This document shows positions 31,157 through 32,704 of a stretch of 64,000 bases of DNA, one piece after another. A program made the translations under genes and the position numbers. The notes under the pieces were generated by a model. It did not search any database, was not told where the DNA came from, and was given only the letters and a program-made list of their open reading frames with translations. Source of the stretch: an uncultured bacterium (GTDB taxonomy: Bacteria; Planctomycetota; UBA1135; GCA-002686595); NCBI GenBank assembly GCA_943787795.1, contig CALSNU010000006.1, positions 384,001-448,000 of the forward strand. Direction: 5' to 3'. The first letter of the stretch is position 1. Each line of letters begins with the position of its first letter.

Positions 31157-31851
31157 CCGCAGAGCCTAACGGCTTCGACTTCCGCCCGACCATCAGGCCA
31201 GGACGTATGCGAAGCAGGCCGCCACTCAGACCCTGCAACAGGCGGAAGCGTGGCGGCTTAGGTGGATCACGGGACCTCGCCGCATCGCTGGCAGCGGACG
31301 CCTGGTCGCCCAAGCGGTGGAATGGAGGACCATGCGACCGCTCGGCGCCTCCTTGCCTGCACCGGCCCTCACTGCCCCTCCCGGCCCCTCCCGGCCCTCC
31401 TCGCCCCTCCCCGGCTCTCCTCGGCCCCCTGACTTCCCCCTGGCTCCGACCCGTAGCGGCCCTCGCGTGCCACCGGGACCCGCACCGACACGAGGGTGCC
31501 GATCTCAGCTCCGCGGGTCTCCACTCGAGGTCGCGCACCGCCCGAATCACGGACGAAGCCCGACCCATTGGCCATCCTTCGACGGCGAGGTCGAGGGCCT
31601 CGGTGACGCCCGTCGAGGCTCCCGACAGATCTTGAGCGCTTGAGGCCCACCGAACCTCCCCACCCAACGGGTAGCTTGGTACTCTCTGCCGCCGCTTCAA
31701 CCTCAGGGAGCTTGCTCGGGGCCTTCTGGCCACCGAGCCATGTCCGGCTCTACCGGTCCCAGGCCGCCGGGCTGCTACCTTCACGGGCCGGGCTCTCCTT
31801 GCCCCCCTCTTGCCACTCCTCCGTCGCCTACTGGCCCATGGGCCCATATCG

Positions 31852-32313
31852 ATGTCACGGATCACTCGAGTCACCGTCCTGCTGGTCACCCTGGCAGGTG
31901 TAGTGCTCGCGACCTCCTGCGCGAGGCCGAGCCAGGAAGGGGGTAACCCCTCCGACGCCGCGACCGGCCCACTCCCCCCTTCTCTGACCGTGCTGCAAGC
32001 AGAGGGCTGAGGCAACACCGCGAGCGCGGTCGCGCTCGTCGAGACCTACGCCACGGCGCTGGGGCTGGACCTCGAGATCGAGTACGTCACCGTCCGAACG
32101 GAGTCCGACGTTCAGGAGCATCGCTTCCTTGGGAGCCCGACCCTCCGCATCGGTGGCCTTGATATCGATCCATCCGCCCGCGGGAACCAACCGTTCGGGT
32201 TCACATGACGACTCATGGACTGGACGCAGGGTGCGTCAGAAACGAAGGAGATGATCCGCAACGCCTTCGCGGAGGCTGGGTGGCTTCCGCCGTCCGGTGA
32301 CCTGCTGGACTAG
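31852..32313 (+). CDS. Candidate double-selenocysteine thioredoxin-like (FxGSPT family) lipoprotein, 153 aa, Sec53 and Sec119
   Basis: In-frame TGA at 32008-32010 and 32206-32208, true stop TAG at 32311. Readthrough gives ...LQAEG-U-GNT...HRFLGSPTLRIGGLDIDP...FGFT-U-RLM...; a SECIS-like hairpin follows each TGA. Confidence 0.8.
32021..32038 (+). promoter_or_regulatory. Bacterial SECIS-like hairpin for the first UGA
   Basis: CGAGCGC-GGTC-GCGCTCG, starting 10 nt after TGA 32008-32010; GGUC apex as in the E. coli fdhF SECIS. Confidence 0.7.
32220..32239 (+). promoter_or_regulatory. Bacterial SECIS-like hairpin for the second UGA
   Basis: CTG(G)ACGCA-GGG-TGCGTCAG, starting 11 nt after TGA 32206-32208; 5'-side bulge and G-rich apex. 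Confidence 0.7.
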
Positions 32314-32704
32314 GCTCGCCTCGGACCGCCGCCACGCTCGACGGGACCGCGATCGCGCCCCGACGCCCAGCAGATCGCCATCGCTTCGCACGCGCTGGCT
32401 CTCGGTCACGCTCACGGCGAGCGCTGAGCTCCACCTGATTCGCCAGAGCCCCCCCGGCGCCCGCCCCCGTTCCCGGCTCTCTCTCGGCCCGCTCCCGGCC
32501 CCGGCCCAGCAGCCTTGCGGGCGAGCGGCGGCAGGGTCCGCGGCTCACTCGCCAACCGGAGGCCTCGGCGACGCGGAGCGGCGCCTCCGACCTGAGCCTG
32601 CTGCGTGAGGGCATGGACGCCATCGCCGCGCAGCAGGCCGAGCTCGGGTCGCCCAGCGCAAGTCAACGCAAGATGGCTCAGCGAGGGAGCGGCCCGATAA
32701 TGAG

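Follow-up and report, generated by a model that had tools for sequence, protein, structure and literature searches.

A predicted DF-family lipoprotein with two in-frame UGA codons for selenocysteine and a thioredoxin fold in an uncultured planctomycetotal bacterium

Results

The reading frame at 31852..32313

A stretch of 64,000 nucleotides (hereafter the window; contig CALSNU010000006.1, positions 384,001 to 448,000, assembly GCA_943787795.1) from an uncultured member of the Planctomycetota was analysed for a gene at positions 31852..32313, whose frame is crossed by two TGA codons. Direct reading revealed an ATG at 31852, TGA codons at 32008 and 32206 and a TAG at 32311, and the translation was exactly the one given in a preliminary description of this DNA, which had proposed a hidden lipoprotein with selenocysteine (Sec) at two conserved Cys positions. 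Under genetic code table 11 the sole open reading frame (ORF) listed in this frame has 66 amino acids (31810..32010). The features of the gene are the following:

31852..32313, plus strand: complete coding sequence of 153 codons plus TAG, with TGA at codons 53 and 119 read as predicted Sec; it has a coding GC pattern and matches the NCBIfam model NF049942
31852, plus strand: start codon ATG, from direct reading of the frame
31852..31920, plus strand: predicted signal peptide with lipobox; n-region MSRITR, h-region at residues 7-20, LATSC up to Cys23 (codon 31918-31920); no twin-arginine motif
31921..31980, plus strand: linker rich in Pro, Ser and Gly, residues 24-43, predicted to be disordered; predicted local distance difference test (pLDDT) of 57-66 in 10-residue blocks over residues 1-40
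31981..32274, plus strand: predicted thioredoxin-fold domain, residues 44-141; strands b1 44-49, b2 75-80 and b3 97-100, helices a1 56-69, a2 84-89 and a3 129-141
32008..32010, plus strand: UGA-1, predicted Sec53, where the thioredoxin CxxC has its first (nucleophilic) Cys
32020..32039, plus strand: candidate selenocysteine insertion sequence (SECIS) hairpin, SECIS-1; 8-bp stem (32020-32027 with 32032-32039), GGUC loop at 32028-32031, 17 nt past UGA-1, -14.0 kcal/mol
32131..32142, plus strand: GSPT motif, residues 94-97, aligned with the cis-Pro loop 'VPT'/'VPA' of the thioredoxin structures 1fo5 and 1nho
32206..32208, plus strand: UGA-2, predicted Sec119, in the motif GF-T-U-R; 33 of 149 homolog representatives stop exactly ahead of this column
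32223..32237, plus strand: candidate hairpin SECIS-2; 6-bp stem (32223-32228 with 32232-32237), GGG loop, 20 nt past UGA-2, -8.0 kcal/mol
32311..32313, plus strand: true stop codon TAG, at which the coding GC pattern ceases

All three segments of the frame are coding. The GC content at the first, second and third codon positions was 0.69/0.60/0.75 ahead of UGA-1, 0.68/0.48/0.83 from UGA-1 to UGA-2 and 0.65/0.50/0.79 past UGA-2, while beyond the TAG it was flat (0.74/0.79/0.72). A DNA contig of 6,441 nt, obtained independently in another study, spans 31700-32450 and differs solely at 32376 and 32395, both outside the gene; because it is identical inside the gene, the TGAs are not sequencing or assembly errors. 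Twenty listed runs, belonging to 8 metagenome studies of marine, estuary and seawater samples, contain the stretch or part of it. The gene is also covered by contigs that two studies obtained from RNA libraries: X15 runs in a single piece over 31957-32432, across both TGAs and the stop, X16 covers 31991-32157 and 32226-32444, and X17 covers 32091-32299; the uncovered part at 31700-31956 carries no evidential weight, and these metatranscriptome contigs are a hint of expression only.

Membership of the DF family and the two Cys columns

With U read as C, the product (P0001) matched the NCBIfam model NF049942, "DF family (seleno)protein", with 88 bits (cut-off 70, E 3.1e-25), its residues 46-138 aligning to positions 2-96 of the 96 in the model. 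Nothing besides NF049942 was found in the NCBIfam scan of P0001 at E<=1, and the sole Pfam match was a sub-threshold one to Thioredoxin_3 (E 0.13). In a six-frame search of the genome with NF049942 the gene itself was recovered with 74 bits and two TGAs inside the match.

An exhaustive phmmer search gave 1000 proteins at E<=0.001, 63 of them with E<=1e-10, and the best 150 of these 1000 matches were aligned, which allowed 149 proteins to be classified by their state at the columns of the first and the second TGA (columns 1 and 2):

Cys at both columns: 103 of 149
Cys at column 1, protein ending exactly before column 2: 33 of 149
Trp at both columns: 1 of 149 (P0007)
Cys at column 1, Trp at column 2: 1 of 149 (P0028)
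Cys at column 1, Leu at column 2: 1 of 149
Cys at column 1, gap at column 2 with the protein going on, or otherwise unclear: 4 of 149
Column 1 absent: 6 of 149

Codons 53 and 119 thus fall on the two Cys columns of the family, as the preliminary description had proposed. The Trp states of P0007 and P0028 are gene calls in which TGA was taken as Trp. An alignment of 100 homologs (A3), all of which match NF049942, gave the consensus VLYFxGCPN...RFLGSPTVRVxGxDIEPxAR...FGxxCRxY, with C53, G94, S95 and P96 nearly invariant, and this matches the pattern GCPN...FLGSPT...CRxY on which the preliminary description had drawn. Its link to DUF2703 held: 17 of the 100 homologs match DUF2703 (PF10865), while P0001 itself has no match to it at E<=1. 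Of the same 100 homologs, 23 match Thioredoxin_3 and 9 match TIGR00411. As a separate observation, the protein P0008 of 3,303 amino acids has 17 separate stretches that match query residues 90-130 (the GSPT...G-D region; E 2.1e-23) and appears to be a large repeat protein built of this sub-motif.

Selenocysteine machinery and use of TGA in the host

The host genome (4.71 Mb in 8 contigs, 84.9% complete) holds the whole set of Sec genes for which a search had been suggested. Matches over the cut-off were found for selA (457 bits), selD (327 bits), selB (328 bits, or 350 including a C-terminal piece) and tRNA-Sec (69 bits; anticodon TCA, called as tRNA-SeC by ARAGORN). The selD gene adjoins selA and has one in-frame TGA, so that SelD is itself a selenoprotein in this genome; the pair was located at G000:C5:184589-187201 (L001, L004). 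In the window, TGA terminates 3 of the 8 Pfam-supported genes, and a general reassignment of TGA is therefore ruled out. Searches of the window with Rfam and ARAGORN found nothing, including no general bacterial SECIS match from Rfam.

Other members with in-frame TGA codons

Six-frame searches with NF049942 matched 6 of 61 genomes of relatives, 0 of 17 genomes of the same genus and 27 of 401 genomes of a phylum sample. In the relative and phylum samples, the matched places held either zero stops or exactly two TGAs, and a single TGA was never seen. Forms that end at column 2, taken as single-Sec (Cys/Sec), are frequent in the global protein set (33 of 149), though the phylum sample has no single-TGA match. 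Profile scans were also run on contigs; with the single protein, genome contigs gave one distant locus only, and with an alignment of the three closest sequences (A2), metagenome contigs gave 2 loci.

At the DNA level, TGA was found at column 1 in 6 genes and at column 2 in 7 genes, with five genes besides the one described here having it at both (L022, L038, L044, L050, and L057). Three of them (L022, L038, and L044) each have a signal peptide with a lipobox Cys. L057 (59% identity) has no signal peptide and apparently starts directly at the domain, and L050, also without signal peptide, continues into a segment with multiple transmembrane (TM) helices. Column 1 is TGT and column 2 is TGA in the gene of L056, which contains P0006 (55% identity). 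TGA terminates the DF genes of L022 and L044, so it remains a stop in those organisms. Homologs lacking Cys or Sec at the two columns, a genome devoid of Sec machinery, and random stops or frameshifts in close relatives had been named beforehand as signs against a double selenoprotein, and none of the three applies.

L050 was observed to have further features of its own. In this gene (G074:C156, minus strand of the locus, locus coordinates 1072-1794) there is no TAA or TAG up to the multi-TM segment, where a third TGA lies in the motif A-C-P-T-U, and a glutaredoxin gene and selB are located within a few kb; it could be a three-Sec fusion of DF with a membrane segment.

Candidate SECIS hairpins

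The published criteria for a bacterial SECIS (bSECIS) are a loop of 3-9 nt, an upper stem of 4-16 bp, a G in the first two loop positions, a distance of 16-37 nt from UGA to loop and a minimum free energy <= -7.5 kcal/mol (PMC13188914, as given in the legend of Fig. 2). Applied to the sequence and the folding energies, SECIS-1 and SECIS-2 both agree with all of them.

Comparison among the homologs revealed that a GGUC-capped hairpin, whose loop begins exactly 20 nt downstream of the first nucleotide of the column 1 codon, is present in 5 of 6 TGA forms compared to 1 of 25 Cys forms. L050, the TGA form without it, has a hairpin of 6 bp with a CGUG loop, shifted downstream by one nucleotide, and the sole Cys form with the GGUC hairpin is L056, the closest relative. 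In L056 (1770-1809), TGT stands at column 1 and the complete GGUC hairpin of SECIS type is retained downstream, which suggests a recent switch between Sec and Cys in either direction. Across 7 sequences, 85.7% of the 56 cells of the SECIS-1 stem are paired and 4 of its 8 pairs show changes on both sides, that is, compensatory ones. The covariation score of this stem was 0.446, compared to 0.188 for shuffled alignments (0 of 500 shuffles reached it) and 0.06-0.22 for slid controls.

After UGA-2, the gene described here, L056 and L057 share a GACGCA...UGCGUC hairpin type, which is the same in L056 and a variant in L057. L022, L038 and L044 have another hairpin type after UGA-2, in which two Pro codons pair through their third positions as G-C, U-A and A-U.

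Predicted export signal, fold and active site

The product is predicted to be a lipoprotein whose signal peptide carries a lipobox at Cys23, as had been proposed. The PROSITE-style lipobox pattern matches LATSC and ends at residue 23, behind a positive n-region and a hydrophobic h-region, and the 12-residue hydropathy maximum of the signal peptide was 2.875. S22-C23 is invariant in A2, and the Cys is aligned in 5 of the 6 rows of a further alignment (A1).

The AlphaFold2 model showed a mean pLDDT of 83.8, with most core blocks at 91-98 and a b-a-b-a-b-b-a topology. Foldseek matches to the PDB were at the top nearly all thioredoxins with modest E values of 7.6e-4 to 1e-2 (best 3vfi, 7.6e-4), and the family profile matched 1fo5, the Methanocaldococcus jannaschii (M. 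jannaschii) thioredoxin, with E 3.8e-8. Column 53 is aligned with the first Cys of CPHC in 1fo5 and GSPT with the cis-Pro loop, which places the predicted Sec53 at the nucleophilic position. A CxxC motif is absent, the motif of this protein being U-G-N-T with Cys/Sec at the first position only. The second conserved chalcogen, at residue 119, lies in a C-terminal extension 66 residues from the first. In the DSSP string of the model the only isolated bridge residues are S95, beside the cis-Pro, and residue 119, and from these bridges it may weakly be inferred that Sec119 would lie close to the active-site loop.

Sec use, export and phylogeny

The presence of a hydrophobic signal- or TM-like segment ahead of the domain was compared with the state of the two columns:

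Segment present (15 classifiable): Sec-type 13, Cys/Cys 2
Segment absent (123 classifiable): Sec-type 22, Cys/Cys 101

With the two trait columns removed, 139 rows and 94 columns went into a FastTree tree; P0008, rows of unclear state and rows with <55 filled columns were left out. On this tree the Cys/Cys label required only 2 changes, compared to a mean of 31.9 after shuffling (as few in 0 of 500 shuffles), and the Sec forms therefore fall into one or two clades. For the export label, 11 changes were needed. Only 2 independent pairs were found on supported branches, and for that reason no independent association of Sec with export is claimed. The query groups with P0006, P0007 and P0009, and this set of four rows is supported (95).

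Genomic neighbourhood and fusion partners

Upstream of the gene there is a gap of ~700 bp, with a 194-amino-acid ORF without family assignment on the opposite strand. The region 31157-31851 has no frame-specific signal in GC at third codon positions (GC3) and no family match, and it is unusually long for an intergenic region. The downstream neighbour is a convergent S8 protease gene, and a scan for promoters and terminators gave no sites.

The family itself is linked to mercury-type genes. Fused domains were surveyed in 30 scanned of 35 representatives longer than 190 amino acids:

MerT: 20 of 30, of which 17 also have HMA
HMA only: 1 of 30
MerB: 3 of 30
YidC: 1 of 30
Thioredoxin: 1 of 30
SnoaL: 1 of 30
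No fused domain detected: 3 of 30

In most fusions DF stands ahead of MerT, and by the usual topology of MerT it would lie on the cytoplasmic side. The order in P0009, which ends ahead of column 2, is MerT-HMA-DF, and DF is therefore on the MerP side of the membrane in that protein. The gene in L056 is downstream of a CsoR-type repressor gene and a CopZ-N/MerT/HMA gene. That of L057 has a DGC-domain gene on one side and an MTH895/ArsE-type thioredoxin on the other, the latter followed by a thioredoxin-MerB fusion. The suggested link to alkylmercury lyase is thus borne out by the MerB fusions and by the MerB neighbourhood of L057.

The neighbours of the three other double-Sec lipoprotein genes (L058-L060) include MTHFR, DUF4291 and methyltransferases. 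Class-I S-adenosylmethionine (SAM) methyltransferase genes were observed at L059:9239-9979 and L060:6873-7718, within ~1 kb of the double-Sec DF lipoprotein gene in two genomes, G093 and G179; this proximity could be coincidence or a shared context.

Discussion

A double selenoprotein and its proposed function

The gene is very probably a genuine two-Sec selenoprotein of the DF family (NF049942), Sec incorporation being a bioinformatic prediction. Its mRNA would carry two separate SECIS hairpins, 17-20 nt past each UGA, at which SelB and Sec-tRNA(Sec) would insert Sec at positions 53 and 119. The precursor would be exported by its Sec-type signal peptide and lipidated at Cys23, and a flexible linker of ~20 residues would tether the domain to a membrane facing the periplasm. 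The genome has genes resembling those for BamA and Lgt, with matches under the curated cut-offs. Sec53 would stand in place of the nucleophilic CxxC Cys beside the cis-Pro loop and, with no second CxxC cysteine there, its partner would be the distal Sec119. Such a pair would most likely form a two-selenolate site that would capture a soft metal, for example Hg(II), or an organometal outside the cytoplasm and pass it on. This role may be likened to that of MerP beside MerT, with the protein standing alone in the host genome, where no mer partner was found.

Since relatives are fused or adjacent to MerT, HMA or MerB, the capture and hand-off of soft metals by the Sec pair appears the most likely function, and we propose it with middling confidence. 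The combined explanation, a double-Sec DF lipoprotein with a soft-metal role, we regard as reasonably probable. A wider reading is put forward tentatively: the DF domain might be an unrecognised mercury or soft-metal module of thioredoxin fold, whose extracytoplasmic branch swapped S for Se, and in this marine bacterium it might act as a lipid-anchored periplasmic Se-metal-Se trap, a stand-alone scavenger without a mer operon.

Several results weigh against this interpretation. In the window, Pfam and NCBIfam revealed no operon partners among the neighbours and none related to metals; MerT was not found in the host genome, which is 84.9% complete, and its best MerA-like match reached 380 bits with a cut-off of 454. 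Metal genes are likewise missing from the surroundings of the three other double-Sec lipoprotein genes. With regard to lipidation and the outer membrane, an Lgt-like match of 81.7 bits was below the cut-off of 118.9, and BamA-like matches were below the curated cut-offs. The link of Sec with export is mostly phylogenetic, and RNA-library contigs can hold carried-over DNA. As to the hairpins, the folding z-scores of the 43- and 45-nt windows past the two UGAs were only -0.8 and -0.9 in this DNA of 69% GC, the mean z past column 1 was -0.3 in TGA forms compared to -0.63 in Cys forms, and a generic hairpin of >=5 bp was present at column 1 in 14 of 25 Cys forms, as it was at column 2 in 13 of 26.

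Past column 2, the mean z was -1.65 in TGA forms compared to -0.40 in Cys forms. Folding energy was rejected as a SECIS discriminator: the z-scores are unexceptional, TGA forms do not stand apart from Cys forms at column 1, and generic hairpins are common in Cys forms. The SECIS case consequently rests on the specific loop, its fixed offset and the covariation, which comes from only 7 related sequences; the evidence is good but not decisive, the sequences being few and related.

Alternative explanations

The pair might instead serve redox chemistry, which we regard as possible though rather unlikely. The protein would then be a periplasmic selenol/diselenide oxidoreductase or a peroxidase-like enzyme, in which Sec53 attacks a disulfide, sulfoxide or peroxide and Sec119 resolves the product. 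In atypical two-Cys peroxiredoxins and Cys-type glutathione peroxidases, one residue attacks and a distal one resolves. The thioredoxin fold and the location of Sec53 at the nucleophilic Cys position agree with such an enzyme, as do the thioredoxins and the glutaredoxin among the neighbours of relatives and the want of mer genes in the host genome and beside the three other double-Sec lipoprotein genes. U-G-N-T also resembles the U-G-x-T of glutathione peroxidases; however, this motif is not conserved in the family, whose Cys forms have CPN[HW], and no peroxiredoxin or glutathione peroxidase family was matched at E<=1 in Pfam or NCBIfam. Most catalogued prokaryotic selenoproteins are described as redox proteins in PMC13188914. 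The fusion partners of DF are mainly metal-handling domains and not redox enzymes, 24 of the 30 scanned long forms having MerT, HMA or MerB.

Only partial decoding is very unlikely. Translation would stop at UGA-1, leaving a 52-residue lipopeptide, or at UGA-2, leaving a 118-residue single-Sec protein, with the rest a relic or rarely made. Sec insertion in bacteria competes with termination, and two sites multiply the loss; only 34 codons lie beyond UGA-2, and both gene callers and the published founding DF sequence stop ahead of column 2. Nevertheless, coding GC and protein conservation persist past both TGAs (RNAF-EAGW is common to P0007, L038, L056 and L057), the last helix at residues 129-141, of high pLDDT, lies past UGA-2, the NCBIfam model runs ~22 positions past column 2, and each UGA has a SECIS-type hairpin of its own.

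A pseudogene, that is, a Cys/Cys gene with two nonsense mutations, or a host that reads TGA as Trp or Gly would be in keeping with the gene being absent from the 17 same-genus genomes searched and hence dispensable, with its lack of operon partners and with the one database gene call that has W at both columns (P0007), but this highly improbable explanation is already contradicted, given that both stops are TGA and fall exactly on the Cys columns, as is also seen, without any TAA, TAG or frameshift, in five other genes that come from metagenomes and from different families of the phylum, that the coding signature is intact, that an independently assembled DNA contig has the same sequence and runs of 8 studies contain the locus, that TGA ends ordinary window genes as well as the DF genes of L022 and L044, and that the full Sec machinery is present.

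Significance and relation to the catalogued DF family

The novelty implied in the preliminary description was overstated, as DF is already catalogued as a selenoprotein family (PMC12013277, NF049942). "Hypothetical protein DF" was predicted by deep-Sep in one genome, that of Desulfosediminicola flagellatus IMCC35005 (Xiao & Zhang 2025, PMC12013277), and that paper describes the protein as being without conserved domains and reports no TGA-containing homologs. The 2026 catalogue (Zhang et al. 2026, PMC13188914) enters DF under NF049942, giving it 1 Sec and listing no motif. The founding DF sequence, as published in row 14 of supplement file 3 of PMC12013277, carries U at column 1 and breaks off, with the residues FGIS, a single residue short of column 2, while P0028, which looks related to it by eye, continues past a W at column 2; the founding member is for this reason probably a double selenoprotein that was truncated at its second TGA. 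A full-text literature search found no paper that joins a selenoprotein with DUF2703 or uses "DF family" with selenoprotein, and DF is not mentioned in the main text of BSepDB.

What is new here are the two predicted Sec residues, each with its own candidate SECIS, the lipoprotein export, the recognised thioredoxin fold and the mer-type context. The Sec-type branch of DF is large, with 35 of the 149 top representative clusters, compared to the one Sec, no fold and no TGA homologs of the catalogue. As had been expected, standard annotation misses or splits the gene: table 11 sees the 66-amino-acid ORF, and gene callers truncate or miss such genes, with 33 database representative clusters ending exactly at column 2. 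Few bacterial proteins are known to contain two Sec residues that are encoded separately, and exported, lipid-anchored ones are rarer still. The recurrent fusion of DF to MerT, HMA and MerB points to a concrete and testable role in mercury or soft-metal traffic, where the affinity of Se for mercury would be relevant. If true, the Se-metal-Se trap would be, to our knowledge, the first natural metallochaperone built on a Sec pair.

Comparison with known systems

DF resembles the small thioredoxin-like proteins MJ0307 and MTH895 (ArsE), represented by TIGR00411, TIGR00412 and Thioredoxin_3 and by the PDB entries 1fo5, 1nho and 1ilo, which match DF in the fold, in the first half of the sequence and in the place of the active-site Cys/Sec. 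Those proteins have CxxC, whereas DF has a single Cys/Sec there and a second, distal one in a C-terminal extension that has no counterpart in them.

SaoT (NF040730) is a small, MJ0307-related, thioredoxin-like selenoprotein encoded among organometal and mercury-type genes, for which direct contact with metal species was proposed (Haft & Gwadz, preprint, 10.1101/2022.07.06.499078). DF is likewise small, MJ0307-related, thioredoxin-like and found among organometal or mercury-type genes. In contrast, SaoT has one Sec in a CxxC-type motif (UxxC or CxUC) and is cytoplasmic, and P0001 has no match to NF040730 at E<=1.

MerP and the HMA domain of MerTP or MerA are functional analogues. MerP is a small extracytoplasmic metal binder with two thiolates that acts beside MerT, and DF domains are fused to MerT-HMA or encoded next to it. 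MerP has a ferredoxin-like HMA fold and CxxC ligands, whereas the protein described here is predicted to have a thioredoxin fold, putative selenolate ligands 66 residues apart and a lipid anchor, in a genome in which no MerT was found.

DUF2703 is a related family, and the more distant loci show its CxxC...SSPT...C-R-V-W pattern. The DUF2703-type relatives differ in having extra CxxC motifs, and none of those was seen with TGA.

The catalogued DF family itself has the same domain, the same two Cys/Sec columns and the same GSPT as the protein of this gene. To it the present analysis adds two predicted Sec residues, a signal peptide with lipobox, a thioredoxin fold, many homologs that have TGA or are truncated at column 2, and fusions and neighbourhoods of mer type.

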